Source: an uncultured Candidatus Micrarchaeota archaeon
GTDB taxonomy: Archaea; Micrarchaeota; Micrarchaeia; Anstonellales; Bilamarchaeaceae
NCBI GenBank assembly: GCA_963791815.1
Contig: CAWBTT010000004.1
Location: 130,215-194,214, forward strand
Direction: 5' to 3'
Length of the DNA: 64,000 bases
The notes below the pieces were generated by a model that was not told the origin of the DNA, made no database searches, and was given only the letters and a program-made list of their open reading frames with translations. This document shows, piece after piece, positions 4,507 to 53,920 of this stretch. Every line of letters starts with the position of its first letter. The stretch's first letter is position 1. The position numbers were made by a program, and so were the translations under genes.

Positions 4507-6594
4507 CTAGGAGTACTCCCAGCAGTCAGGTTCAAGTATGCTGAATGGAAGCGAGCAGCTGTGCGATGAATCGCCATCAACATACGCGTATATGGTTCCA
4601 GACTGGTATGGCTCCCCGGTGATATTGTAGTATGTTCCTGAGTCTGTTCCTCCCGAGACCCCCACATAGCCTGAGGCCGACCAGGTCACGTTTGCACATG
4701 GCTGATCAGCGTCCGGCCCGCAGTTGATGTTGACCCATCCGAATGCACCAGGATAAGCGCTGAATGCCCCATCCCCGATGGTACACCATTCGCTTGAGCC
4801 ATCGTCGTCATCATCGTCATCAGAGCCGTTGTCATCGCCTCCGTCGCCTATTTCAATCGGCGCAAGTGCGATTGCTCCAAGAATCGGGTCGTCTGCAGGG
4901 TTGTTCCAGTAGGCATAGCCAAGGAGGTTCCCTGTGCTGTTTGCGCCTGCTGTGAATGTTGTACCGTCAGTGCTTGAGTTGCCTGTCGAGCCGAGAAGGC
5001 CGTCTATGTTGTCATAGTCAGCATCATCCGGAGTGGACGGGTTTCCATCTTCGAAACAGTTGAGTTCGAAATATTCAGACTCGCCAGTTTCCATCGAAGC
5101 GCTTGGCGGGACGAACTCGCACTCATAGTGAATTGGAGTTGTCACAGAAACATCCGAAAGGCAGTGCGCTATTCCTGACTCGTAGTTCATCGTCCCGGTT
5201 GTGCCTGGAGATGAGGTTGGATAGGCAATTGCGTGCGTATTGTCCCTCTCGATGAATCCGCCTGAGATTGCGTCCCAGTACCAGTTGTTTCCAACACATG
5301 ATATTGGGTCTCCTGCAAGGTCCTCGCAAGCGACCTCGAACTCCGCTACTTCGAGTGTTCCAAGGTTAAGTGAGCTTGGGTCGATTTCGCATGTGATTGC
5401 ACCAGTAAGCGAAACTGAGTCACTGCACGATGAGGCGCCGCCGCATGCAGATGAGACTGTTGAGGCTGAGAAAGATAGTACTGTTCCGCCGGATGCTCCG
5501 GGGTTTCTCTGGACAAGAACGTATAGGTCCTTGTTTCCTCCTGGACCGATAGATTCACCGAATCCGTTGGAGCTTGGACAGTCTGAAGGCAGGAATCCCA
5601 GAGTAGTACTGCAAAGTGAGACTGGAAGCGGGTCAACATCATAGTCAAGGTTTGAGCCTGTGACGCCATTGATGGTGATGTGGTCTCCGCTGTTATGCTC
5701 TCTGACGATGACCATCATTAGGTCTTCATCAATTAATGATTTTTTGGCAGTCACTGAAACCTCGTTGAAGTTGCAGCTTCCACCTGCATCCTGGACTGTA
5801 AGTGATATCGTGTCAGTAGCAATTGACGGGCCTATTAAAGGCTGATTATCTGTGAAGTAATATAGCCTGAACCAGAGTGAGCTTGTTTTCTGAAGCGGGT
5901 TCTTTGCCAAAGCAGCAATACAATCGACATCCTGGAGCCTTGTTTTTACCTGGTATGAGCCAGAAGAACTCACTGTGAATGATGGCGAGGGAATCGAAGG
6001 CATGGCCGAGCTTCCGCCAGGAACAACGCTACCTCCACCAAGGACCTGATAGGTTCCTTTACAGAACACATTGCCCTCACCTCTGCGGTTGGCAAAGGTT
6101 CCGCTCAAGTTATGATAAGTCACTGGCTGGTAATGAAACGTTGCCAAATCATCATACCTTGATGTGTCCTGTGTCAATAGATTGCCATCACCAAATGTAT
6201 TATGATCAGTGTACTGCGACGATGTAATCCATTTGATATTCCTGTTAGTATTTGTAGTTGAATAACTGATAAATGTCGGACATCCACCTGTCGGACACTC
6301 TGGGAATAAGGAATCGATATCCAAACTTGATACTGCCCATTTGGAGTTCACTGACGGGTTGACATTGAGCGTTGCGCCACTGCAGATGACATCCCCGGTC
6401 TGGAGATTACTCGGATTTCCGCTAACGACATCGCCTGAACTGGATGCGCTCAAAGTGAAGTCAGTAGTGAACTGCATGTTGGTGTTGAAGTGATAAGGCT
6501 CACCAACATAGTTCTGGAAATTTCCAGGGACACTAGTAGCGAACGCAAATGCGCCAAAAAAAATCAAGATTGAAAAGAGTGTTTTGTACATCAT
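4507..6594 (-). CDS. secreted Cys-rich Ser/Thr/Gly/Asn/Asp-rich surface protein (orphan)
   Basis: Canonical signal peptide MMYKTLFSILIFFGAFAFATS, preceded by GAGGT 4 nt upstream of ATG 6594. Repeated Cys-bracketed beta-like modules and a poly-Asp tract (DDDDDDD). The ORF opens further upstream and overlaps the stop of gene 6602..8578. Confidence 0.6.
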   Translation of the reverse strand: MMYKTLFSILIFFGAFAFATSVPGNFQNYVGEPYHFNTNMQFTTDFTLSASSSGDVVSGNPSNLQTGDVICSGATLNVNPSVNSKWAVSSLDIDSLFPECPTGGCPTFISYSTTNTNRNIKWITSSQYTDHNTFGDGNLLTQDTSRYDDLATFHYQPVTYHNLSGTFANRRGEGNVFCKGTYQVLGGGSVVPGGSSAMPSIPSPSFTVSSSGSYQVKTRLQDVDCIAALAKNPLQKTSSLWFRLYYFTDNQPLIGPSIATDTISLTVQDAGGSCNFNEVSVTAKKSLIDEDLMMVIVREHNSGDHITINGVTGSNLDYDVDPLPVSLCSTTLGFLPSDCPSSNGFGESIGPGGNKDLYVLVQRNPGASGGTVLSFSASTVSSACGGASSCSDSVSLTGAITCEIDPSSLNLGTLEVAEFEVACEDLAGDPISCVGNNWYWDAISGGFIERDNTHAIAYPTSSPGTTGTMNYESGIAHCLSDVSVTTPIHYECEFVPPSASMETGESEYFELNCFEDGNPSTPDDADYDNIDGLLGSTGNSSTDGTTFTAGANSTGNLLGYAYWNNPADDPILGAIALAPIEIGDGGDDNGSDDDDDDDGSSEWCTIGDGAFSAYPGAFGWVNINCGPDADQPCANVTWSASGYVGVSGGTDSGTYYNITGEPYQSGTIYAYVDGDSSHSCSLPFSILEPDCWEYS

Positions 6595-6601
6595 AAAAAC
6601 C

Positions 6602-8578
6602 TCATTCATCCTCAGTTCTTCTCGGGGTAGCCCTTCGAACTGAACCCTCGGTTGGCGATGGCCTGAAGAACTCTCCAATGTTGAACTGAAGGTTCAGTCC
6701 ACCGAATGGAGTTCCTGGAAGCCTGTCGACTTCCTCTCCGCCGACCTCGCCAAGGTATCCTCCGCGAAGGTCCACCTGGAACATTCTGCGGTATGAGTAG
6801 CCAAGTCCGAGATAGCCCTCAAATGTGTGGACCGTGTTCCCGAAGTTGTAATCATACCTAAGGCCAGGGCCCGCAAAGAAGCGGTGCTGGCCTTCCTCAC
6901 CAGCATAAACTGAAAGGTTGAGCGGTCTAATGTCCCCGCCTACCCTGTGCTGCCTGAGGAAGTATGAGTACTGTGGCGTGATTGTTGACTGGAGTCTTAC
7001 ACGGTTCCCTTCCATCCAGTTGCCCTCCATTGTTATGTAGGCAAGGGGATTCATGAGTACTCCGGTTGTGTCTCCTCCTGGTGCCTGCTCAAGCGTTGGA
7101 ACCACGCCAAGACCGACCCTTGAGAGCCTGACTATTCCGCGGTTTCCTTCTTGGCCTGGGAATCTGACTTCAACGCTTGTCAAACCAAGCATCGCACCGG
7201 AATCTCCGACTTCAAGCGTTTCGGTTGAGCCGTCTGTCATTGCAACTTGCCCTGACATGCTCCACTCCTGATGCGGAATCACTGTTGCGCCAATCACGAT
7301 TTCCATTGGTACTGCCCAGCTCTCTCCGCCGACACCTGTACCGATTGCAATTTCTGGCCTCAAACCAACTGAATGGCCGGTGCCAGAAAGCCTTGTCCTT
7401 CCGACGGTTCTAAGTTCCTGAGTCTGCGGGTCGACCTGAAGCTGCTGGAGCTGTCCGCTCATTGCAAGGTATTCATAGTACAATCCAAGTGAAGTCCAGA
7501 TGAACCTCGGCTCAAAGCCGCCATGCCGTGTTCCTCTCATATACTCCTGGAACGCCTGCATGTTCTGGTCGAACTCGTATCGGACCGTTACTCCTGCTCT
7601 GAAAATCGCGACTGCCCTCTGGTTAACTGAAATGACATAGAGGTTGTTCAGCGACTGGAAAATACTGTTTAGGGTTGACTCACCAGCAAGTGACTGAAGA
7701 CCGCCTGAGAGGTCTCCTGACTGCAATTTTCTCATCGCATCCTGGAACCCTGGCCTCTGCCAGATTTCTCTCTCAGATGGAATCGCGCTCAGCGCGTTGA
7801 AAAGCGCTGTCGCAGCCGTCCTCAGTGCTGCTGCATCATTTGGATGGTTTGCAAGTACTGCGTAACCATTTGCAATTGCGTTGACACCTGCCTGTGCTGC
7901 TGCCTGATCCCCAAAAATCGCGCTCATCTCAAGACCCGGAGTCGCGTTGATTGCAACGACTGATTCCTGGCTGCCACGGCTCAGCAGTGTAATGTTACCA
8001 AGGTCATGCATTGGCACTTCAATAATTGGAAGCGCGGTTGCCCTTGCCGCTTCGTCAACTTCCCTTGGGCCTGTCTGGGCGTCTGTTGAGACACCTTCAG
8101 TCACGCCAAGAAGAGCTGTAAGCATAGCAAGATGAGAAGCGAATTCGCTGTATCCCTCTTCGTCAGCTGATGCCCCTCTGCTAATCCTCTGGAGCATTGT
8201 CCTGAATGCGGTTGCATTGTCTCCAAGAGCTGCTGCATCCTGCGGCTGAAGTTCCTGAAGCCTCTGCAGTGAAGCAACAAGTGCCCTCTGGGCATAGCCA
8301 AGTGCGCCTTCGCGTCCTTCGCCTTCTCCAAGCCTCACGATTGCCTGATCATAAACCCTCCTCATAGGGTCGCTTTCAGCCGGCCGCCCACCAAGAAGAA
8401 CCTGGTGAATCTGCGCGATTCTGAGCGAGTTGTTCACCGAAGCTCTCGCTGTCGGTGCCCTTGACGGATGGGTAGGCCTGTCTGTCCTACCTGCAATAAT
8501 GTCCAAAAATCCTACTAACTGGTCTGCTGAATAGAGACCCTGTGATTCAGTCGGTGTTTCCCGTTGCGCCTGTGCCAT
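6602..8578 (-). CDS. orphan 658-aa protein: helical N-terminal half, beta-strand-rich porin-like C-terminal half
   Basis: Long ORF with GGGGTGA 6 nt upstream of the ATG. Only one Lys in 658 residues. The C-terminal ~300 aa are alternating amphipathic Gly/aromatic-rich strands ending in GGLNLQFNIGEFF. No family recognised. Confidence 0.6.
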   Translation of the reverse strand: MAQAQRETPTESQGLYSADQLVGFLDIIAGRTDRPTHPSRAPTARASVNNSLRIAQIHQVLLGGRPAESDPMRRVYDQAIVRLGEGEGREGALGYAQRALVASLQRLQELQPQDAAALGDNATAFRTMLQRISRGASADEEGYSEFASHLAMLTALLGVTEGVSTDAQTGPREVDEAARATALPIIEVPMHDLGNITLLSRGSQESVVAINATPGLEMSAIFGDQAAAQAGVNAIANGYAVLANHPNDAAALRTAATALFNALSAIPSEREIWQRPGFQDAMRKLQSGDLSGGLQSLAGESTLNSIFQSLNNLYVISVNQRAVAIFRAGVTVRYEFDQNMQAFQEYMRGTRHGGFEPRFIWTSLGLYYEYLAMSGQLQQLQVDPQTQELRTVGRTRLSGTGHSVGLRPEIAIGTGVGGESWAVPMEIVIGATVIPHQEWSMSGQVAMTDGSTETLEVGDSGAMLGLTSVEVRFPGQEGNRGIVRLSRVGLGVVPTLEQAPGGDTTGVLMNPLAYITMEGNWMEGNRVRLQSTITPQYSYFLRQHRVGGDIRPLNLSVYAGEEGQHRFFAGPGLRYDYNFGNTVHTFEGYLGLGYSYRRMFQVDLRGGYLGEVGGEEVDRLPGTPFGGLNLQFNIGEFFRPSPTEGSVRRATPRRTEDE

Positions 8579-8841: not shown

Positions 8842-11800
8842 TTATCTGGAACGACGAGCCGCTGCTGTCGGTGAAGTGCTCCTTGGTGATACGATTACCA
8901 CCGGGGTGCTCTCTCCGACCACGTAGGTCCAGCTCTGGTTGTGATCTGTCGGAGCGCAGACTGATTCCATATTTCTGCGGAATCGTTCGTCACGTACAGG
9001 CTCGAATCCACTGGTGCCCTCTATCCTGAAAAGCACATCAGAAGGCCTAACACGCTGTCGACCGTCCATAACAGGAACCCACTCGCGTCCGCTTGTTGGG
9101 CTTTCTCCTGAAGGCCTAACACGAACGACTGCCCTGGGGATTACTGTCCCATCAGTCAAGGTTACATTGTTAATAACCTGGCCGATGTGAGAACGTCTCC
9201 TGGCTTCTATAGTACTTGTCGGGTCATACTGCGGATTCCTAAGATACTGGGTTATCTGCCCATCCTGGTCGCGCCTTCCGAGGTTCTGATATACGAACCA
9301 GTAGTAGGTCAGGTTGACTGTCCTCTGGTGCTGTCTCTGATACCTCCTGTGGAAGTCTGCGAAGCTCATTGTGTCTCCGTCCGCTTCACGGACCATGACC
9401 TGCTCTGCAGTGAATCTTACCCTGCTTGATGAACCCCTAGAGTATCTCTCCTGCTCAATGCTTGTCCTTGGAACGTAGAACGAAAGCTGCGCAAGGTCGT
9501 CTGTAAGCCTTCCCTGCTGCTCTGGGTCTGGGAATCGGCTGAGGATGCTATCATCAAGGCTTGCGATTGCGAGTTCTGCTGTTGCAATTGCCAATCTTGG
9601 GTTCATGCGCCCAGTGAAAAGGTCGCTGCCCCTGTCTCTGTGAAGCGCTCCGCGCAGTGTTGTAAGCAAACGCTCAGCCTCAACTGCCCGAGTTACATAC
9701 ATTACTCTTGGGTCGCGGCTTCTTGCAAGGTCCCTTCTTGCGAACCTTGTTCCGCTTGCGACTGCGATTTCACCGTCCAATCTTGTCCTGAGTTCTCCAA
9801 GCCTTGTATCTAATATAGATATAAGCTGGCCGTTTGCTGATGCAAGTGTCTCAGTTGGCGTTGCAGTTGCGTATCCCTGTGAAATCTGCCACATCCTGCT
9901 CCGGAGTGGTGCTGGATCAATTGTCCTAAGCCACTGCGGGGTCTGCCCATTGCCCCGGAGAATCGCAAGTCTGTAAAGCTCGATATAAAGGCTTCCATAC
10001 TGGGCAATCCTCATATCCTCCTGAGGATTGCTTCCAAGGTTGGCATCGCCGCCAGTATTTGGCTCAGGAACGATGTGCTGGTCAACTTCTGAAACAGAAG
10101 TTCTTCCCCTTCCTGTGCTTCCCCTGAGTATCGGATGTCCACCTCTCTGTATTGGTTCGGTGGGATTACGCCCGACTGAAGGCTGCAGTAATGCGAATGC
10201 CCTTCTTGATGCGGCGTCCCTTGACCCGTAAGCTGAAACCGCGAATCTGGGTGTGCCTCTTACTCCAACAAGAAGTCTGAGGAACCTCTCTTCTGCCAGT
10301 TGTGCGGCCTGGGCTCTTTCAGCATCAGTTGGATTGGCAATATCAGCAACAGTAACTTCCTGTGATGAAGGCGATGCGTATGCCTGGTTTGTCGCTATTG
10401 TTGCAGGCGATTCAAGAACCCTGAAAGTAGCAGGCGCAAGAGCGTTGATTGCTGCATCTGCTATTGCTCCTGATATGTTGGGGTGGAAACCTGAATCGAC
10501 TTGCGGTGATGAGAAGCACCATACGAATGCCTGCTGTGCCTGCTGAATCATTGCATCGGCACGGCCAAGCCTTTCCTGTGAAAGGTTTGCCCGAATTGAG
10601 CTGGTTGACCTCCAAAGCTGAGCCTCACGGATTGAAGCGAGACTGAGTGCCATGTAATATAATGTATCAGACATCTGCGGAACCTGCGCCACGTCCACAG
10701 TTCCCTGAGAAGCTGTAATCCAGGCATTTGCCGCCTGAATCATCGGGTCTGTTGCTGGAAGTCCTGAACCAGTTACAACTTCCTGCAGAGAACTCCTTGC
10801 AAGAGTGAGCCGGGCAGTGCCTTGAAGCTCTGCCTCACTAAGAGGCTGTGGCGGATATGCTGCCATATCAAGCGCGAGCCGGTACCTTGCATACTCGTAG
10901 CGGATGTTGGGCCTGAGCCTCCTCATTGTCGCCATTGTCCTTATTGAAGATGAAACTGCACTAGGCGCTGCCGGGGCGAGTCTTGAAACTTCCAGGTAAA
11001 GCTTGTGCAAAACATCCTCATACCTGAAATCCCGGTTTCTCATAAGGGCAGGCAAAAGTTCAGTTTCTGCACGGCGCACCTGGGCATCTGTAATTGGAAC
11101 CCCGGTATGCCTAAGATATGCCCTTGCCATACTGCGCCTTGTGCCTGCAGTATAAAGTCTGTAAGGAATGAAATCTGAATCAAGCAATGTTGAGACTGCA
11201 TTTGCATATGCGGTCCTAAGCTGGATTCTTCTTGGAGTATCAAGGCCTGCTATGTTCTGCCCCCTTGTGAATTCCCAAAGGTCCACAACTGCGCGGATGA
11301 CCTGTTCTTCTGATACAACTGACTCATAAAGTTCATTGACAAGATGGTATGAGAGAGAACCTCCCCCCTGCGCACCCTGAAGAACCTGCCTTGCACGCGT
11401 AAGCCTTTCTTCCATTGAGCTTCTGATGTCTTCCCTTCCGGTACGGACACGGCGAAGAACTCTTGTGCCATCAGCATTTCTTACAGGTACATAATCATAG
11501 GTTCCCCTGCTCTGGCCATCAGCCCTTGCCGCTGCCGCAACCTCTGCTCTTGTTGGAAGGTGACTTCCATCAATTGCCTGGAGAGATGCCTGCGCGATTG
11601 GAACAACAAACTGCTCGAGCCTCTGGCGCATGAGCTGCTGCTCCTGGGTAAATATTGTATTGGCTGCTGTGAGTTTTTCCCTGGCAAGAGTTTCGTTGCC
11701 CGCTCGAATAGCATCGCGTGCCTCACCAATTCTTGTAACCATGCGTGATGCTGGACTTTCACCAAGAAGAAGCGCATCGTTAAGCCTTCCGATAAGGTTG

Positions 11801-12849
11801 TTTGCAAGATTTCTCCTTTCCTGTGAAACTGACTGGTCTGCTGCGACCGCCTGAAGGTCTGTAAGTATTGAGGTTACCCTCTGCGAAAGAGGATGTGCCG
11901 CTGCAGTGTCAACACCAGGAATATCGGTCATCCTTGCCTGTGCTGCTCTTGTCTGGGACCGTGCGAGTTCACTTGAAACTACACGTTCTGCTGCTGTGAC
12001 AAGCCTTGCAAGCTGGCGTTCCCTTGGGCCGCCGGTCCTGTTAAGTTCTGCATTCAATCTGGTAAGAGCCTGCTCAGCGCTCCTTCGAACGCCAGCATTT
12101 CTCCCATAATTAGAAATTACTTCAAGATTGTCGCGAAGCTGTCCGTGCTGCGGCGCTGCTGCAACTGCGGGTTCTGGCTGCGCTTCAACTCTCGCTGGAA
12201 CGGTTTCCCTTGCTGATGGTCTTTCAGTAGGTGCTGCAACTGGGGCAGGTGCTACTGTTGGCTGCGGGGTTGCCTGCGCGAGAACTGGGCCGACAGACGA
12301 ATCAGCCGATGGGGTGCCGAGCGCTGCCATGACCCTCTGCTCAAGAAGTTGAAGGCCTGCTGCATCGAGTGCCGCATCCCTTCCTCTTCCGAGCCATGTA
12401 TTCATTGAGCGGAATTTGTCTCTGTCTGTTGAACCTGAAATTGGAATGACTGCCTGGCCGCCGTTTGATGGGCGAAGCCTCTGGTCAAGTTGAACCAAAG
12501 CAGCAAGAAGTCTTCTCACGTTCGCATCAGTATAAGTAACCTGCACTGGTGTGATTCCCGCTTCCTGCATCTGGGTGAATGTACCCCGAATTGCAGTGAA
12601 ATGAGTAGTGAGATTTTCATAAGCCTGTTGTACTGCCCTAACATCTACCCGTGACTCTTGCGCATGCGCCTCTTTCATAGCCGGTTCTCCCATAATAGCA
12701 CCCATAAAACTCGCGACAAAAATTGCGCGATGGAAGAACCTCTTAACGGCTCCCCCAGTACCTTTTCTGTTAGTAGAATTTAAAGGTTCTCTATGGCGGC
12801 GATTCTCGTCTTTCTGTTCAGCAGAATAATTTAGTTTTGGACCTCCCAT
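8842..12849 (-). CDS. orphan 1335-aa Ala/Arg/Gln/Leu-rich, predominantly helical protein with N-terminal hydrophobic anchor
   Basis: Uninterrupted 4-kb ORF. KRFFHRAIFVASFMGAIMGEPAMKEAHA resembles a signal or anchor segment. A Pro/Ala linker follows (TPQPTVAPAPVAAPTERP). Eight Lys in total, five of them in the first 59 residues. No family recognised. Confidence 0.6.
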   Translation of the reverse strand: MGGPKLNYSAEQKDENRRHREPLNSTNRKGTGGAVKRFFHRAIFVASFMGAIMGEPAMKEAHAQESRVDVRAVQQAYENLTTHFTAIRGTFTQMQEAGITPVQVTYTDANVRRLLAALVQLDQRLRPSNGGQAVIPISGSTDRDKFRSMNTWLGRGRDAALDAAGLQLLEQRVMAALGTPSADSSVGPVLAQATPQPTVAPAPVAAPTERPSARETVPARVEAQPEPAVAAAPQHGQLRDNLEVISNYGRNAGVRRSAEQALTRLNAELNRTGGPRERQLARLVTAAERVVSSELARSQTRAAQARMTDIPGVDTAAAHPLSQRVTSILTDLQAVAADQSVSQERRNLANNLIGRLNDALLLGESPASRMVTRIGEARDAIRAGNETLAREKLTAANTIFTQEQQLMRQRLEQFVVPIAQASLQAIDGSHLPTRAEVAAAARADGQSRGTYDYVPVRNADGTRVLRRVRTGREDIRSSMEERLTRARQVLQGAQGGGSLSYHLVNELYESVVSEEQVIRAVVDLWEFTRGQNIAGLDTPRRIQLRTAYANAVSTLLDSDFIPYRLYTAGTRRSMARAYLRHTGVPITDAQVRRAETELLPALMRNRDFRYEDVLHKLYLEVSRLAPAAPSAVSSSIRTMATMRRLRPNIRYEYARYRLALDMAAYPPQPLSEAELQGTARLTLARSSLQEVVTGSGLPATDPMIQAANAWITASQGTVDVAQVPQMSDTLYYMALSLASIREAQLWRSTSSIRANLSQERLGRADAMIQQAQQAFVWCFSSPQVDSGFHPNISGAIADAAINALAPATFRVLESPATIATNQAYASPSSQEVTVADIANPTDAERAQAAQLAEERFLRLLVGVRGTPRFAVSAYGSRDAASRRAFALLQPSVGRNPTEPIQRGGHPILRGSTGRGRTSVSEVDQHIVPEPNTGGDANLGSNPQEDMRIAQYGSLYIELYRLAILRGNGQTPQWLRTIDPAPLRSRMWQISQGYATATPTETLASANGQLISILDTRLGELRTRLDGEIAVASGTRFARRDLARSRDPRVMYVTRAVEAERLLTTLRGALHRDRGSDLFTGRMNPRLAIATAELAIASLDDSILSRFPDPEQQGRLTDDLAQLSFYVPRTSIEQERYSRGSSSRVRFTAEQVMVREADGDTMSFADFHRRYQRQHQRTVNLTYYWFVYQNLGRRDQDGQITQYLRNPQYDPTSTIEARRRSHIGQVINNVTLTDGTVIPRAVVRVRPSGESPTSGREWVPVMDGRQRVRPSDVLFRIEGTSGFEPVRDERFRRNMESVCAPTDHNQSWTYVVGESTPVVIVSPRSTSPTAAARRSR

Positions 12850-19272: not shown

Positions 19273-19906
19273 ATGAAGAGAAAATTAGGAACAGCAGATT
19301 CGCTGGAGTTAGCCAATTATCTTGGAAAATTGTTGTTAGTTAAAACAAAGGGTAATGACGAAATCAGAGCATATAGGATTAGAGATTTTATCAATAGCAG
19401 GCTGAATGGGGAAAAAATTGTAGAAGTGGCCAAAAAAACGGAAACAAATCCTCGGAATATAGGCAATTGGCTAGGTAATACAAAAAGGGACATTGGATTT
19501 CCGCTTAGCAAACTACTAATTGTTTCAAAAATATACAATATTCGAAATCAGGATTTGTTCGGTGCCATCAAAATTTTTGGATGTACTGATAGTAAAAAAT
19601 CCAGATTACCAAAAAGGATTACCCCCAGATTAGCATACCTGCTTGGATATTTGATGGGAGATGGTCATTTGGCTAATCCTAAGGACACAATATCTAATGG
19701 ATTTGAGTATAATGCAGAGGTGAAAAATTCTTAAGGAATCTGGAATCTTAAGAGCCGGCATTTATGTGGATACTGGAATTCGAAAAGGAAAAAGAACAAA
19801 AAGTTATGTCTTGGCCATTCAAACGCAACGAGAGATTGGATTGTTTATAAAACAGTTCTTTTCATTGAAAATACAAGAGCGTGCAAGAAAATGGATGAAA
19901 AAATAG
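19273..19906 (+). pseudogene. free-standing LAGLIDADG homing-endonuclease-like gene with a frame disruption
   Basis: LAYLLGYLMGDGHL motif after a helix-turn-helix-like N-terminus. The frame stops at 19734. The C-terminal part (KILKESGILRAGIYVDTGIRKGKRTKSYVLAIQTQREIGLFIKQFF) continues in the +1 frame to 19906. Removing one A from the A5 run 19723-19727 joins the two parts. Confidence 0.6.
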
Positions 19907-20600
19907 TTCCTCAACATATTGCTTTCATCCCGGACGGAAATTAGAAAAAACCGTAAACCGGAGATGGAGCGAGCAGAAGGGAATTCCACGGAAAGAAGGC
20001 TACAAGATTGGGATTGAGCATATTGGGGATGTTCTCAAATGGTGCAAAGAGAAGGATGTCCGCATGGTGACCATGTGGGGATTCAGCACAGAAAATTTCA
20101 AAAGGGATTCGGAGGAGATTGAGGGACTCTTCAATCTGTTCAAGAAAAACCTTCTTGAGGGCCTTTCGACAAAGGAGGAAGAAGGGAAGAAAATCAAGGT
20201 AAGGTTCCTTGGCAGGACACATCTTTTTCCAAAAGACATTGTCGCTCTTTTCAAGAAAATCGAGGAAAAGACAAAGGACAACGGACCTTTTCAACTTAAT
20301 TTGCTTCTCTCATATGGGGGCCGCGGCGAAATAGTCGACGCGGTAAATGACATAATCAAGGAAGGCGCTCAGGAAGTGGATGAGGACATGATAGGAGAGC
20401 ACCTATACACCAAGGAGATGCCTGATCCTGATTTGGTCATCCGGACTTCCGGTGAGCAGAGGCTTTCGGGGCTTCTTCCGTGGCAGACCTGCTACAGCGA
20501 ATTTTATTTCTCAAAGAAACTGTGGCCGGACTTTTCCAAAGAGGATTTTGAAGAGGCTTTAGAAGAATACGCAAGAAGGAAAAGAAGGTTCGGGCGCTAG
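19891..20600 (+). CDS. uppS: undecaprenyl (cis-prenyl) diphosphate synthase, coding sequence interrupted by a 17-nt BHB element: join(19891..19939,19957..20600)
   Basis: MDEKIVPQHIAFIPDGN then TAG. The rest (RRWSEQKGIPRKEGYKIGIEH...MVTMWGFSTENF...RTSGEQRLSGLLPWQ) lies in another frame. Removing 19940-19956 gives PDGNRRW and a 230-aa product. Confidence 0.8.
19940..19956 (+). other. candidate 17-nt bulge-helix-bulge intron within uppS mRNA
   Basis: Helix CCGG 19930-33 with CCGG 19958-61. Bulge AAA 19955-57. 4-bp helix ACGG 19934-37 with CCGT 19951-54. Bulge AAA 19938-40. TT/AA closes a 6-nt loop. Cuts after the 2nd bulge nucleotide restore the frame. Confidence 0.6.
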
Positions 20601-20889: not shown

Positions 20890-21029
20890 GCCGCAGTAGC
20901 TCAGTGGGAGAGCACTCCAGGTCCTTTTTTGTAATTAAAAAAAGAACCGGTGAAGCTGAAGTCTCACTGGGGGTTTAGTTCCCAGTTTCGGAAACGGAGG
21001 GGTCGCTAGTTCAAATCTGGCCTGCGGCA
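20890..21029 (+). tRNA. tRNA-Phe (GAA) with two introns: exons 20890..20918, 20955..20961, 20994..21029
   Basis: The joined exons give GCCGCAGTAGCTCAGTGGGAGAGCACTCC-GCTGAAG-ACGGAGGGGTCGCTAGTTCAAATCTGGCCTGCGGCA. This is a 72-nt cloverleaf with anticodon arm CTCCG/CTGAAGA/CGGAG. Both introns lie in BHB-type structures. Confidence 0.85.
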
Positions 21030-27967: not shown

Positions 27968-28067
27968 GGGCCCGTGGCTTAACCTGGATATAGCGAGTGG
28001 CTTCGGAAGCCTTCTCCAAATCGCTGGAGAAACCACTAGGTTAGGGGTTCGAATCCCCTCGGGCCCG
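27968..28067 (+). tRNA. tRNA-Arg (TCG) with canonical 25-nt intron (28007..28031)
   Basis: GGGCCCG...AGTGG CTTCGG | intron | A CCACT AGGTT AGGGGTTCGAATCCCCT CGGGCCC G. BHB: CTTC pairs with GGAG; the bulges are GG|A and AA|A. Confidence 0.9.
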
Positions 28068-42607: not shown

Positions 42608-43180
42608 ATGGAAGACTATGCATGGGTTATCGAGTACTTGCCAGAAGGTCACGCTTCGGCAGTCAGAAAAGAGCCAGTCGTTCAGCTTCTTGGAAGCAAA
42701 TTCTTCACCCTGCTTGAGGCAACTATTAATCCTGATTCAACCATTTTCATGGGACAGAAAGTCTATGTTGGCAAAGAGGGAAGGGAAGAAATAACCCACA
42801 TCAAGGGAAGGCTCAAGTATGATGACCTTACCAATGGAGCCCGGGGATTCCTTCCGGCGATGCTGAAGAAGATAATTATGGAGAGGGAATCAGACTTCGT
42901 AGGATTCCTCAACAACGCTAAATCCATTTCCATCAGAGTACATATGCTTGATTTGCTTCCAGGAATCGGAAAAAAGACCATGGAAGCGCTCCTGCGGGAG
43001 AGGGAAGAGAAGCCATTTGAGACTTTTGAAGATATTCATAAGAGAGTCCCTGCTCTGGCTGACCCTGTCGGGATTTTCGTCCACAGGATTTCAAGTGAAC
43101 TGATGGGCAATGAGAAATACTTCTTATTCACTAAGCCGCCATCTTTGCCAAGGCCTCAAGGCGGATACAGAAGACGCTAG
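42608..43180 (+). CDS. DUF655 putative RNA-binding protein
   Basis: EDYAWVIEYLPEGHA N-terminus and a helix-hairpin-helix-like C-terminus. Conserved position after rpoF. Confidence 0.7.
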   Translation: MEDYAWVIEYLPEGHASAVRKEPVVQLLGSKFFTLLEATINPDSTIFMGQKVYVGKEGREEITHIKGRLKYDDLTNGARGFLPAMLKKIIMERESDFVGFLNNAKSISIRVHMLDLLPGIGKKTMEALLREREEKPFETFEDIHKRVPALADPVGIFVHRISSELMGNEKYFLFTKPPSLPRPQGGYRRR

Positions 43181-44529
43181 TTTTTTGTTTTTTCACTCTT
43201 TGGAGAGTACACATACACAAACTTCTTTCCTTCAACAACTTTCTTACAATAATTCAGGTGAGAAAGAAGATCCAAATCTGTTCTGGCAGTCTCATATACC
43301 ACATTGTAAATTTGTTGAATTTCACGAATGGTAAACTTTTTCAGTGGGTGTCTCATAAAGCGGAGTATAATGTCAGATTGACGAAAATTCAGTAACTTAT
43401 CATTCTCTAGAAGTTCCCTTACCTTCATACTCTCCTCACGCTTTTGTTTAATGTAGTCCATGAAAGCGGTTAAGGCAATTTGCAACTGGCGAAGATTAAA
43501 CACTATGAAATATGTCAAATCATTTTGATCGGTCTCAGTAAAGAGATATGCCTTGGAATAACGTCCTGGGGCTTCCTTAATCACTCTTGAGATGGGCATG
43601 TATTCGAATAACCAGTAACCCTGCTTCAATACATACCAGTAGAACAAAGCACGGGCAGTTCTCCCATTACCATCCACAAATGGGTGGATATAACCAATCA
43701 TGAAATGTAGAATTATTGCTTTCAATAAGGGATGTAAAAATGTCTTCCCCTCAGAATTCATGAATTCACATAACGAATCAATCATTTTGGGGATTTTTTT
43801 GTGATCGGGTGGAGTGTAGACTGGTTCGTTAGTAGCAACATCTATAACGTGGATCTTGTTGTTATTTCTGAATTCTCCCAGTTCACCATCGTCAATAGTG
43901 TTTTTTGTGATACTTGAATGGATTTGACATATCAACTCAGGAGTCAGTTGAAGATTCCTAATATCCTTCAGATACAGCAATGTCCTATATGCATTTACAA
44001 TCATGTGCTGGGATTCATCTTTGGGTTTTTTTCCCATCCGAAGCATTTCTTTAGCGACTTCTCTTGTGGTTACTGCGCCTTCCAACTGAGAAGTCGCAAC
44101 TGCTTCTTCCATGATAGAGTTGATAAGATATTTTTCCATGGACTCTTCTGGAGCTAAATCATCTGTCTTTGACTCTAAAGTGCCAGAGGCTTGCTGATCA
44201 AGCTCCTGAAAAGATTTTAGGATATTATCAGTTAGAACGTAACGAAAAACTACATCGCCAATAGATATTGAACGATATTGTGCCAATCTGCTCCATTTCA
44301 ACAAACTCCACATCATTTCAGATGCAAGCCCCTTGGGGTGATTGTGATGGCGCATTTCGTCCCAGTGAAGATATTTTTGATTCATATTGAATATATAATC
44401 CTGCATTTCTTGGTCTGACTGCAAGTCAAGGATAACGCTGAATTCTTTCGGGTTTTCTAATATCTTTCGTGGGGGTTTTTGAATGCCCATAAAGTACATA
44501 TTACCCATAACATTTATAAAACATACCAA
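43177..44529 (-). CDS. Fic-domain protein (class II, with inhibitory helix and C-terminal winged-helix-like region)
   Basis: Fic motif HPFVDGNGRTAR. Upstream TSQLEG fits the [ST]xxxE[GN] auto-inhibition motif. AT-rich gene. The probable start is ATG 44490, about 22 nt after ttttataaa. Confidence 0.8.
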   Translation of the reverse strand: MVCFINVMGNMYFMGIQKPPRKILENPKEFSVILDLQSDQEMQDYIFNMNQKYLHWDEMRHHNHPKGLASEMMWSLLKWSRLAQYRSISIGDVVFRYVLTDNILKSFQELDQQASGTLESKTDDLAPEESMEKYLINSIMEEAVATSQLEGAVTTREVAKEMLRMGKKPKDESQHMIVNAYRTLLYLKDIRNLQLTPELICQIHSSITKNTIDDGELGEFRNNNKIHVIDVATNEPVYTPPDHKKIPKMIDSLCEFMNSEGKTFLHPLLKAIILHFMIGYIHPFVDGNGRTARALFYWYVLKQGYWLFEYMPISRVIKEAPGRYSKAYLFTETDQNDLTYFIVFNLRQLQIALTAFMDYIKQKREESMKVRELLENDKLLNFRQSDIILRFMRHPLKKFTIREIQQIYNVVYETARTDLDLLSHLNYCKKVVEGKKFVYVYSPKSEKTKN

Positions 44530-44699: not shown

Positions 44700-44808
44700 G
44701 GGCCCGCCCAGGATCGAACTGGGGATCTTTCGCGGTCTTAAAGAAGAATAAGTATCAACGAATTCTTCCGATGTAAGGCGAACGTCTTAACCACTCGACT
44801 ACAGGCCC
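44699..44808 (-). tRNA. tRNA-Val (TAC) with canonical 37-nt intron (44735..44771)
   Basis: Reverse complement is GGGCCTGTAGTCGAGTGGTTAAGACGTTCGC CTTACA | intron | C GCGAA AGATC CCCAGTTCGATCCTGGG CGGGCCC A. BHB: CTTA pairs with TAAG; the outer helix has 7 Watson-Crick pairs plus one G-U pair. Confidence 0.9.
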
Positions 44809-50760: not shown

Positions 50761-51452
50761 ATGCTCTGCATGCACATTGTTCTTTCAGTAGGCGGAAGCT
50801 CGGTAATACCAGACCTTAAGGCAGATCTTGGATTTGTGAAATCCCTGGCCAGAATCATCAAGAAGAGCAAGAATAAATTCGGGATAATCACTGGCGGGGG
50901 CTCTGTTGCCAGGCTGTACGCCAATGCTGCAAGGAGCCTTGGGGCAAGCGAATATGAGGCGGACAACGTTGCCATAATCTCGACAAGGCAGAATGCCCAC
51001 CTTGTGATTGCAGGGCTTAGGGCTGAAGGGATTGACGTTTACAAGAAGGTAGTCATTGACTTTGAGGAAGCAAAGGGAATAACGAACAAAGTTGTTGTGA
51101 TGGGAGGGACCATTCCCGGAATCACAACTGACACTGATTCAGTGCTTCTTGCTGAGGCTGTAGGCGCGAGCAAATTGGTCAACATAAGCAATGTGGATGC
51201 TATTTACGATTCTGACCCGAGGAAGAACCCCAAGGCAAAGAAATATGCGTGAAAATGAGCTATGATGAATTGATTGCCCTGGCAGCCTCAAGCGACAAGA
51301 GAAAGGCAGGGACCAACTTCGTCTTTGATTTGCTTGCCTGCAAACTGATTTCACGCTCTAACATTGAGACCCATTTTGTCAGCGGAAAAAGCCTGAAGGA
51401 TGTGGAAGCAGCAATAGAAGGAAAGAAGCACAGCGGAACTGTTGTAAAGTAG
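50761..51452 (+). pseudogene. pyrH: UMP kinase (archaeal PyrH) split by a 1-nt frame change at about 51241-51252
   Basis: ORF 50761..51252 (IVLSVGGS...ITGGGSVAR...MGGTIPGITTD...DPRKNPKAKKYA*) and ORF 51249..51452 (KMSYDELIAL...GTVVK) together make one PyrH. One extra A in the run 51241-51243 would read AKKICVKMSYDEL. Confidence 0.7.
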
Positions 51453-52585: not shown

Positions 52586-53920
52586 ATGAAAAAATATTAT
52601 ATACTTAAATTGATATTCGAAAGTCCCAGAGGGATTAGTCCTAGGGAGTTATCGGTAAAGGCCAAAACATCAATTACTAACATATATGTTTACCTGAAGG
52701 AGCTTGTTAAAGAAGAGCTACTGAGGAAAGATGATGGAGGCAAATATTTAGTTAATAAAACAAATGAAAATCTAGGACAGGTACTGGACCTACAAGCGAT
52801 GGCGCCAAATAAATTCCATTTACTCATTGCCCCACAATACAAAGACATCCTGTCAAAATTATGTGAGAGAACAATCTGCAATGGGATGTCATTTTCTAAG
52901 TCCGAAATTAGTAAAATCGAGAGGATACTGATACCTCTAAGAATTGTCCTGAAGACATCAAAAAAACCATCCAGGTATTGTCTGAAGATAAATGAAAATC
53001 TCACTACTTCATTACTAGAGTACCATGACCTAAATCCAAATTTCAGTTTAATCGACTTTGATGGAGCCATCGATAGAATTGAAATTAGAGAAACTGAAGG
53101 GAAAACCAAGAATGCAATTAGTGAGAAGGAAGTCGAAGAAATGTGCAACAGTGCTTATCGGGCAGAAGAGGATACCACAATACTTAAAAATTGTGAAAAA
53201 TTCGAATTAGACTCTAGATTAGCGGATTTACTACGGATTGCAGATCAGATTAACAAGGAGTACAGGTTGTTTCTGAATGGATTAGACGAGAAATTGAAAA
53301 GAGAATTGGTGGGGCAGTGGGAGAAAAAGTACATATACAACACAAACAGTATAGAAGGAAATACAATGAGTGAAAAAGAAGTCAGTGAATTCCTAAAAAA
53401 GAGGATAGAACCAAAAGGAGCATCAAAAAGAGAATTGCATGAAACCACAAACATGAGACATGCCCTGAATTTTCTCAAATTGGCCCAAAATCAGGACATT
53501 GATGGTGGAGTTGTAAGGAACCTGCATTTCCTGGTCCAAAAAGATATTGGATGGGATGCTGGACAATATAAGAAGTTTTACAATTACGTCAAGCCAAACA
53601 GTCCGACAACACCCCCGCAGCACGTCAAAGAAAGAATGAGAATGTTAGTTGAATGGCATGAGAAAAATGCCGAGCGTATGCATCCGTTTGTTCTGGCTTC
53701 AATCTTCCATATGCAATTTGAACTGATTCACCCATTTGGTGACGGTAATGGAAGAGTAGGAAGACTTTTGATGAACATGATACTGCAGCAGAACCATTTT
53801 ATGCCAGTGACTATTTTGGAAAAAACCAAACAGAATTACTATCGTGCATTGGAGAATAGGAGCATACACCAATTTCTCCTATATACTTTGACAGCATTTA
53901 TAGAGGAATACAGGAGATAA
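52586..53920 (+). CDS. Fic-domain protein with N-terminal winged helix
   Basis: Fic motif HPFGDGNGRVGR. Upstream TNSIEGN fits [ST]xxxE[GN]. N-terminus has a MarR-like wHTH (ISPRELSVKAKTSITNIYVYLKELVKEELL). AT-rich. Confidence 0.8.
   Translation: MKKYYILKLIFESPRGISPRELSVKAKTSITNIYVYLKELVKEELLRKDDGGKYLVNKTNENLGQVLDLQAMAPNKFHLLIAPQYKDILSKLCERTICNGMSFSKSEISKIERILIPLRIVLKTSKKPSRYCLKINENLTTSLLEYHDLNPNFSLIDFDGAIDRIEIRETEGKTKNAISEKEVEEMCNSAYRAEEDTTILKNCEKFELDSRLADLLRIADQINKEYRLFLNGLDEKLKRELVGQWEKKYIYNTNSIEGNTMSEKEVSEFLKKRIEPKGASKRELHETTNMRHALNFLKLAQNQDIDGGVVRNLHFLVQKDIGWDAGQYKKFYNYVKPNSPTTPPQHVKERMRMLVEWHEKNAERMHPFVLASIFHMQFELIHPFGDGNGRVGRLLMNMILQQNHFMPVTILEKTKQNYYRALENRSIHQFLLYTLTAFIEEYRR

Follow-up and report, generated by a model that had tools for sequence, protein, structure and literature searches.

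The locus described here raises a simple question: how can a gene for an essential enzyme be translated when a stop codon and a frameshift interrupt it within its catalytic motif? The gene is uppS, which encodes an enzyme of lipid-carrier (dolichol or undecaprenyl phosphate) synthesis, and it lies in a stretch of 64,000 nucleotides (the window) of contig CAWBTT010000004.1 from assembly GCA_963791815.1 of an uncultured Candidatus Micrarchaeota archaeon. The reading frame begins with ATG at 19891 (MDEKIVPQHIAFIPDGN) and runs into UAG at 19942-19944, and the rest of the enzyme (RRWSEQKG... to 20600) is found in another frame. The 17-nt insert sits within the catalytic DGNRRW motif. A preliminary description of the window had given these coordinates and this frame break, all of which are confirmed, and had interpreted the insert as an archaeal bulge-helix-bulge (BHB) mRNA intron. 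That interpretation is supported by the recurrence of such inserts at 18 loci, the cut rule, covariation, an exon-exon helix, selection on the gene and the tRNA splicing of the host. On these comparative grounds the insert at 19940-19956 is probably a genuine intron of the uppS pre-mRNA of the type removed by the tRNA splicing endonuclease (EndA).

Deletion of 19940-19956, as predicted by a cut after the second nucleotide of each bulge, yields a 693-nt open reading frame (ORF; MDEKIVPQHIAFIPDGNRRW...) encoding a 230-aa UppS with the sequence PDGNRRW. The predicted protein covers the whole Pfam Prenyltransf profile (1-219 of 219, E=3.5e-77); the earlier claim that this cut regains both the frame and the DGNRRW motif holds. 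The predicted spliced junction (ATCCCGGACGGAA|ACCGGAGATGG) is present in the DNA of none of the loci compared. These loci were drawn from a genome collection, a metagenome collection and contigs reached via truncated UppS proteins or via a homing endonuclease described below, and comprise 18 insert-bearing loci (independent assemblies, the window included) and 11 close intron-less relatives. A scan of the metagenome collection with the patterns IPDGNRRW and IRTSGE[QK]RL returned mostly distant bacterial UppS and was useful only for L014-L016.

The insertion site is identical in 18/18 loci (GGN-A|AC, between Asn and Arg of DGNRRW), all from Micrarchaeota or related lineages. The inserts measure 13 (L102), 15 (L001), 17 (window), 20, 21, 21, 23, 26, 26, 30, 32, 33, 33, 35, 38, 40, 41 and 42 nt, and every one of them causes an in-frame stop or a frameshift. 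The canonical cut gives DGNRR followed by W in 17 loci and by Y in L101, and the spliced UppS is intact over ~222 codons from HIA onward in every insert-bearing locus. Could the 17 nt be an assembly or sequencing artefact? Frame breaks of 1 nt elsewhere in the window are consistent with some sequencing error. A structured insertion of 17 nt is unlike a homopolymer error, however, and 17 further loci, which come from unrelated projects and assembly sources (MEGAHIT, SPAdes, Logan, JGI, ENA), have inserts at the same site, among them a related intron in L097 that starts with AUUAGC. In public annotation, insert-bearing uppS genes are called as truncated proteins (P0014, P0017, P0021, P0091, P0119). 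One further candidate for a truncated intron-containing gene, P0018 in L095, was rejected, as the gene has no intron and simply lacks a canonical start codon. In exon 1 of L101 (2470-2520), no ATG, GTG or TTG stands in frame from the endonuclease stop to HLAIIPDG.

The transcript of 19925-19966 is predicted to fold with a minimum free energy (MFE) of -12.7 kcal/mol (z=-3.05), a value equalled by 0/200 shuffled sequences. Of the structure proposed in the preliminary description, the CCGG/CCGG and ACGG/CCGU pairings and both AAA positions are retained, and the UU/AA closure of a 6-nt loop is absent from the MFE fold. The outer helix had been given too short an extent: CCGG 19930-33 pairs with CCGG 19958-61 as described, and CAUC 19926-29, which had been overlooked, pairs with GAUG 19963-66 across a 1-nt bulge, giving 8 bp (4+4) in all. 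The central helix is fully Watson-Crick (4/4), and AAA forms a canonical 3′ bulge. An open loop of 13 nt contains the 5′ AAA, because the inner helix would consist only of UU/AA, which does not form in the MFE fold. As modelled, the window copy is the relaxed hBH, or bulge-helix-loop, form of the BHB motif.

A bare BHB motif is common by chance and by itself is no evidence. A scan of the whole window for four Watson-Crick outer pairs and at least three central pairs in the BHB register gave ~1900 matches per strand, equal to reversed-sequence controls. As a search for further mRNA introns in the window it was uninformative, returning hundreds of spurious "junction-restoring" candidates. What lends the uppS motif significance is therefore its exact coincidence with the junction by which frame and DGNRRW are regained, together with the comparison of relatives.

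MFE folds of the individual loci recovered the outer helix, the 3-nt 3′ bulge and the central helix, together with an inner hairpin in most of them, the sequence of which is different in every lineage. The full hBHBh′ motif with inner hairpins is found in L002, L097, L098, L101 and L104. In an alignment of 14 distinct boundary sequences, paired cells amount to 92.3%, versus 25-38% with the partners slid; for the outer helix (helix 1) the figure is 96.4%. The covariation score was reached by 0/500 shuffles. Two pairs covary without a single unpaired cell. The first joins position 3 of the Pro codon to position 1 of the Arg codon and is G-C in 10 sequences and U-A in 4; the change from CCG...CGG to CCU...AGG (the CCUG/CAGG variant) is synonymous in both codons. 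The second joins position 3 of the Asp codon to an intron base and is C-G in 11 and U-A in 3 (GAC/CCGU versus GAU/CCAU). A comparison of uppS among relatives for presence or absence and compensatory changes, advocated in the preliminary description, has thus produced 18 genes with the insert, 11 without, and two covarying pairs.

These base pairs also bear on whether the gap might be bridged in translation, by ribosomal bypassing (hopping of the T4 gene 60 type) or by frameshifting. A stop codon soon after the Gly-Asn codons and a hairpin-prone gap would suit bypassing, as would the GGA found just before the 3′ AAC in L004, L102, L104 and L105, where a GGA-to-GGA hop gives the right protein. 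In the window, L001, L002, L008, L016, L094, L097 and L098, however, no matching landing codon precedes AAC, and the hop in L101 yields DGD rather than DGN. Where GGA does occur before AAC it is a by-product of the helix, and the conserved exon-intron base pairs in the BHB register are not needed for bypassing. Inserts of 15, 21, 30, 33 and 42 nt are in frame and contain stops, beyond repair by a +1 or -1 shift. Bridging in translation is extremely unlikely, and hopping or frameshifting, an intein and a group I or II intron were rejected on length, stop codons and missing landing codons.

The outer helix is formed between the exons, and its conservation can be compared in genes with and without the intron. 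It is 4/4 paired in 17/18 intron-containing genes; in the 11 intron-less relatives it is 2/4 paired in 10 and 3/4 paired in one. Intron states are interleaved in the UppS tree (sister pairs window/L099, L004/L014 and L094/L095), and the contrast is therefore not one inherited difference. L099, whose UppS is 95% identical to that of the window, has no insert. The ratio of nonsynonymous to synonymous substitution (dN/dS) is 0.03 for window/L099 and 0.065 for L008/L011, both of which contain the intron, with synonymous sites near saturation. The introns of L008 and L011 are identical at 26/26 positions, although pS between the genes is 0.48. Judged from these ratios, the predicted spliced uppS genes are under strong purifying selection.

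Such selection is difficult to reconcile with a pseudogene, in which the insert would be a disabling insertion, the scar of an endonuclease cassette or the like, and UppS function would be supplied elsewhere. The unspliced gene does contain a premature UAG and a frameshift, at least one other gene of the window (AA_kinase) is frame-broken, and the adjoining endonuclease gene has also decayed. Apart from the insert, each of the 18 genes is intact over ~222 codons, the pairs compared have dN/dS of 0.03-0.07 near synonymous saturation, and the insert always occupies the same nucleotide with the same cleavage geometry and compensatory changes. A second intact uppS, which the preliminary description had named as something to look for, was not found: none of the 57 window ORFs scanned against Pfam is another Prenyltransf gene, and the genome-collection scan gave one uppS locus per metagenome-assembled genome (MAG). 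Recurrence and selection together therefore exclude an assembly artefact, the probability of which is negligible, and make a pseudogene very unlikely.

An intron of this kind requires a splicing system in the host. An Rfam search of the window identified four tRNAs, of which 3/4 are interrupted. The rule of a cut after the second bulge nucleotide gives three spliced tRNAs accepted by ARAGORN, tRNA-Arg(UCG), tRNA-Val(UAC) and the two-intron tRNA-Phe(GAA), in agreement with the earlier statement that it reproduces the tRNA exon junctions in this window. tRNA-Phe(GAA) without both introns is a perfect 72-nt tRNA; its precursor is mis-called by ARAGORN alone. The three intron-containing tRNA genes, the non-canonical 30/31 site included, imply a working splicing system in the host, and since one intron lies at 30/31, the host endonuclease would act outside the canonical 37/38 context. 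The window, placed by its relatives in Candidatus Micrarchaeota (DPANN), also encodes the archaeal proteins TBP, Rpo4, proteasome alpha and XPD.

By analogy with archaeal tRNA and cbf5 splicing, the uppS pre-mRNA would be cleaved by EndA and ligated by an RtcB-type enzyme. In the transcript, CAUC-CCGG of exon 1 would pair with CCGG-A-GAUG of exon 2, and ACGG of exon 1 with CCGU at the 3′ end of the intron, so that the two AAA triplets are displayed 4 bp apart. EndA would then cut after the second nucleotide of each AAA, and the ligase would join the exons, removing the UAG and the frameshift and regaining DGNRRW.

Several observations weigh against this reading. With the 5′ bulge of the window lacking an inner helix, a strict alpha4-type endonuclease would probably fail to cut there. 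The central helix is imperfect in many relatives, with A.G, A.C or G.A mismatches at its ends; the end pairs are mismatched in 4-5/14 sequences, and no pairs but the middle 2 bp are retained throughout. L105 has the weakest motif among the loci, with a fold z of only -0.9. Because the end pairs are so often mismatched and the L105 motif is weak, the intron family as a whole is "relaxed". No EndA or RtcB gene was found among the 57 ORFs of the 64-kb window scanned against Pfam. Finally, the conservation of the exon flanks could result from co-conversion instead of structural selection, the two being inseparable here. As to L105 itself (2108-2172), the outer helix is CCGG/CCGC with only 2 Watson-Crick central pairs, the endonuclease gene is intact and a 6-nt direct repeat, ACGGAA, is present at both intron ends.

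The imperfect central helices and the open-loop 5′ site of the window might instead point to a real RNA intron that is removed by an enzyme other than the tRNA splicing endonuclease, or that is spliced conditionally as a regulatory switch for UppS. This is unlikely. In every copy the predicted cuts have exactly the geometry of EndA cleavage; tRNA introns that are relaxed or lie at non-canonical positions are, to judge from the window, processed by the host; and precise excision of such segments is not known for any other archaeal enzyme. Broad-specificity EndA types that accept relaxed motifs, including the bulge-helix-loop, have moreover been described for Micrarchaeota (PMC5829648, PMC12397907).

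If the insert is an EndA-type intron, where did it come from? Upstream of uppS the window contains a decayed LAGLIDADG homing endonuclease gene, recognized by tblastn and Pfam, which belongs with the intron and whose identity the preliminary description had overlooked. The reference protein, intact in L002 and L004, is a 324-aa LAGLIDADG enzyme; that of L002 matches PF14528 (LAGLIDADG_3, E=3.2e-15) and has two motifs, LAYLMGFIMGDGHL and FLSGFFDADG. The window copy has lost ~113 codons, including the second LAGLIDADG motif, and is frameshifted; the end of its C-terminal remnant overlaps the uppS start. It is, by its sequence, a remnant and not a working member of the family. An inverted repeat, TCTTAAG...CTTAAGA (19731-19755, +), lies exactly at the junction of the two remnants and the ~113-codon deletion.

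The endonuclease family is small, with 13 proteins among 5.8 billion searched, and 13/13 are the direct upstream neighbors of an intron-containing uppS. For eight this was checked in DNA (L002, L004, L100-L105), and the position of the other five was deduced from predicted C-termini that read through ...HIAIIPDG into the insert. Counting the 13 members, the window remnant and a partial copy in L098, 15/15 endonuclease-bearing loci have the intron, whereas the gene was found in 0/11 intron-less loci; L099 is an empty site with neither endonuclease gene nor intron. The gene is seen intact (L002, L004, L100-L105), internally deleted (window), reduced to its last ~60 nt (L001; alignment score 12 versus a null of -10.4 +/- 4.5) or absent. 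The association extends across lineages. In L101 and L102, UppS is only 35-40% identical to the Micrarchaeota type and the neighboring genes are different, and the L101 endonuclease (P0132) carries the NCBI label Aenigmatarchaeota; L104 has another upstream gene and a UppS that is 54-59% identical. Between these clades the endonucleases are still 45-55% identical.

In 8/16 loci (L002, L098, P0122, P0123, P0124, P0126, P0127, P0131) the endonuclease ORF continues in frame through the uppS start and exon 1 and stops within the intron, which would suit the regulatory switch considered above, as splicing changes the proteins made. The frequency of this in-frame arrangement is not clearly above the 1/3 expected. 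At such loci, splicing would extend the endonuclease frame into UppS as a fusion ORF. A second, distantly related LAGLIDADG ORF, 28% identical to the uppS-associated family, was noted in L010 (4327-4998 and 5036-5256, both -), where it follows immediately after the archaeal RNase P RNA gene; this, too, may be a free-standing homing endonuclease, with a conserved RNA gene as its target.

The intron and the upstream gene can be brought together in a collaborative-homing account which, argued by analogy, has about an even chance of being correct. The mobile unit would consist of the intron, the free-standing LAGLIDADG gene and a portable copy of exon 1. The endonuclease would cut uppS alleles that lack the intron, at the DGNRRW codons or close by, repair from the invaded allele would copy the endonuclease gene, exon 1 and the intron together, and the intron would shield the invaded allele by splitting the target site. 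In the window the endonuclease gene would have decayed later and the intron, its removal now indispensable, would have persisted, because an essential active-site motif tolerates nothing short of exact deletion. Seen this way, the cassette of LAGLIDADG gene, replacement exon 1 and BHB mini-intron may be, with the prospects for and against evenly balanced, a previously unrecognized archaeal mobile element that moves between DPANN lineages.

Indirect support for homing may be seen in the exon flanks and in an insertion footprint. The flanks agree in every nucleotide between lineages with UppS proteins of only about 36% identity; those of L098 and L102, for example, are exactly alike (ATCATCCCGGACGGAA...ACCGGAGATGGGCTGAGAAAA), the L102 UppS being 36-40% identical to the Micrarchaeota-type proteins compared. 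In L103 (1063-1200), an orphan old uppS 5′ end (ATG AAA GAA AAA CCC AGG CAT ATA GCT ATT, encoding MKEKPRHIAI) is preserved between the purP stop and the endonuclease gene, and the endonuclease gene, new exon 1 and intron therefore arrived together. No such remnant of an old exon 1 is found upstream of the endonuclease gene in the window. Between the window and L099, codons 1-13 are the least similar (74% versus 86% overall), and other 13-codon windows drop to 77%; as a signal of co-conversion the low identity of these codons is suggestive only. On the other side of the balance, eight intron-containing loci have no recognizable endonuclease gene, five endonuclease-bearing loci were found by the endonuclease search itself, which biases that side of the association, and the putative DNA target near the DGNRRW codons is deduced from position alone.

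BHB introns reportedly occur in the cbf5 pre-mRNA of Crenarchaeota, as described by Watanabe in 2002 and Yoshinari in 2006. In papers up to 2025, cbf5 is the only coding sequence with a BHB intron (PMC7714728, PMC12397907, PMC5829648), and the HVO_1309 mRNA of Haloferax volcanii carries a BHB element in its 5′ untranslated region (PMC7714728); apart from this leader element, the earlier claim that BHB introns in protein genes are established essentially only for cbf5 matches the literature searched. Searches on undecaprenyl/intron/Micrarchaeota and on BHB/DPANN/mRNA returned nothing relevant. The introns of cbf5 are 16-44 bp long and without a nuclease, and their origin has been called unclear (Yokobori 2009, PMC2738675). 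Going by this literature, uppS would be the second protein-coding sequence known to need BHB splicing. Like cbf5, it has a short intron in the coding sequence (13-42 nt), an often relaxed BHB and a patchy presence among relatives that implies gain and loss, in a host lineage with non-canonical tRNA introns that would fit a broad-specificity EndA. Unlike cbf5, uppS encodes a cis-prenyltransferase, belongs to the DPANN superphylum (Micrarchaeota and an Aenigmatarchaeota-labelled lineage), and has its intron inside the catalytic DGNRRW motif together with a dedicated homing endonuclease gene. The predicted uppS substrate resembles HVO_1309 as an mRNA target of the archaeal splicing endonuclease outside tRNA and rRNA; that element, however, lies in an untranslated leader, whereas the uppS reading frame depends on exact excision.

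LAGLIDADG homing endonucleases of the I-DmoI/I-PorI type are encoded within BHB introns of archaeal rRNA and of some tRNA (PMC2738675). The uppS cassette shares with them the combination of BHB and LAGLIDADG mobility factor at a highly conserved site of an essential gene. In those introns, which are long and interrupt stable RNAs, the endonuclease ORF is carried by the intron itself. The uppS intron interrupts a protein gene and has no room for any coding sequence, and its endonuclease gene stands on its own about 50 nt before the insertion site. A BHB mini-intron accompanied by a free-standing LAGLIDADG gene is a new combination. Unconventional splicing of HAC1 and XBP1 mRNA is carried out by IRE1 with RtcB or Trl1. 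Splicing as proposed for uppS is similar in that a short coding segment is excised independently of the spliceosome, by cuts in structured loops and RNA ligation, with a change of frame. It differs in that HAC1/XBP1 splicing is eukaryotic and regulatory and uses IRE1 and twin stem-loops.

A parallel for the homing logic is the free-standing F-CphI gene, which adjoins the psbA group I intron of cyanophage S-PM2 and for which collaborative homing was described (Zeng, Bonocora & Shub 2009; PMC6083498). In both cases a free-standing endonuclease gene lies beside the intron-containing gene and intron-less alleles lack it, and in the logic proposed for both the intron blocks self-cleavage while the endonuclease mobilizes the intron. 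The phage system pairs a group I intron that splices itself with a nuclease of the Endo VII type, whereas in the uppS system of cellular archaea a BHB intron spliced by proteins would be paired with a LAGLIDADG nuclease. The cleavage specificity of F-CphI has been shown; that of the uppS endonuclease is only inferred.

If the splicing is as predicted, cbf5 would be joined by an unrelated gene from another superphylum whose translation requires tRNA-type splicing. No mobility gene would fit into the short cbf5 introns, which has left their origin unexplained, and next to uppS such a gene is seen in every stage of invasion and decay, whether intact, internally deleted, reduced to 60 nt or gone. 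Should the homing account be true, collaborative homing would for the first time be known beyond the group I introns of phages, and the entry of nuclease-less BHB mini-introns into archaeal protein-coding genes would have its first mechanistic explanation. The account also offers a testable model for the colonization of archaeal protein genes by protein-dependent introns, with a bearing on the early evolution of mRNA splicing. In practical terms, gene callers mis-annotate intron-containing uppS as N-terminally truncated (205-220 aa), and metabolic reconstructions of DPANN can therefore wrongly score the gene as defective.

Features of the window at and around uppS, with the predicted elements of the RNA fold
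Feature	Position	Strand	Basis or remark
uppS exon 1	19891-19939	+	MDEKIVPQHIAFIPDG plus base 1 of the Asn codon; in-frame join to 19957 gives PDGNRRW
Probable BHB-type intron, 17 nt, AUUAGAAAAAACCGUAA	19940-19956	+	holds in-frame UAG 19942-44; homologous 13-42 nt inserts at the same site in 17 other loci
uppS exon 2 (..NRRWSEQKG... to stop codon)	19957-20600	+	Prenyltransf PF01255 match of the spliced protein
Outer exon-exon helix, 5′ strand, CAUC (extension) + CCGG	19926-19933	+	partners 19958-61 and 19963-66
Outer helix, 3′ strand, CCGG, unpaired A, GAUG (exon 2)	19958-19966	+	fold and comparison
Central 4-bp helix, 5′ strand, ACGG (exon 1)	19934-19937	+	pairs with CCGU 19951-54
Central helix, 3′ strand, CCGU (intron)	19951-19954	+	fold and comparison
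5′ splice-site bulge, AAA	19938-19940	+	predicted cut after 19939; here within the 13-nt loop
3′ splice-site bulge, AAA	19955-19957	+	predicted cut after 19956; helices on both sides
Decayed LAGLIDADG gene, N-terminal part, first motif LAYLLGYLMGDGHL	19273-19734	+	tblastn versus L002 residues 6-154, 41% identity, E=5e-38
Same gene, C-terminal remnant, another frame	19727-19906	+	tblastn residues 268-319, 52% identity; ORF 19766-19906
tRNA-Phe(GAA) with two BHB introns	20890-21029	+	introns 20919-20954 at 30/31 and 20962-20993 at 37/38
tRNA-Arg(UCG) intron	28007-28031		cut rule and ARAGORN
tRNA-Val(UAC) intron	44735-44771	-	cut rule and ARAGORN

Other features of the window were noted in passing. 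The frame-broken amino-acid-kinase gene (PF00696; 50761-51460, +) is interrupted near 51245, where ...KKYA is followed by a stop and ...MSYDELIALAASS... continues in another frame. Its appearance suggests a 1-nt indel and not an intron, whether from sequencing error or real decay. Several very large ORFs are without a Pfam match (for example, 8842-12849 and 4507-8578), and two large Fic/DOC-domain proteins are encoded less than 10 kb apart, at 43177-44529 (-) and 52586-53920 (+).

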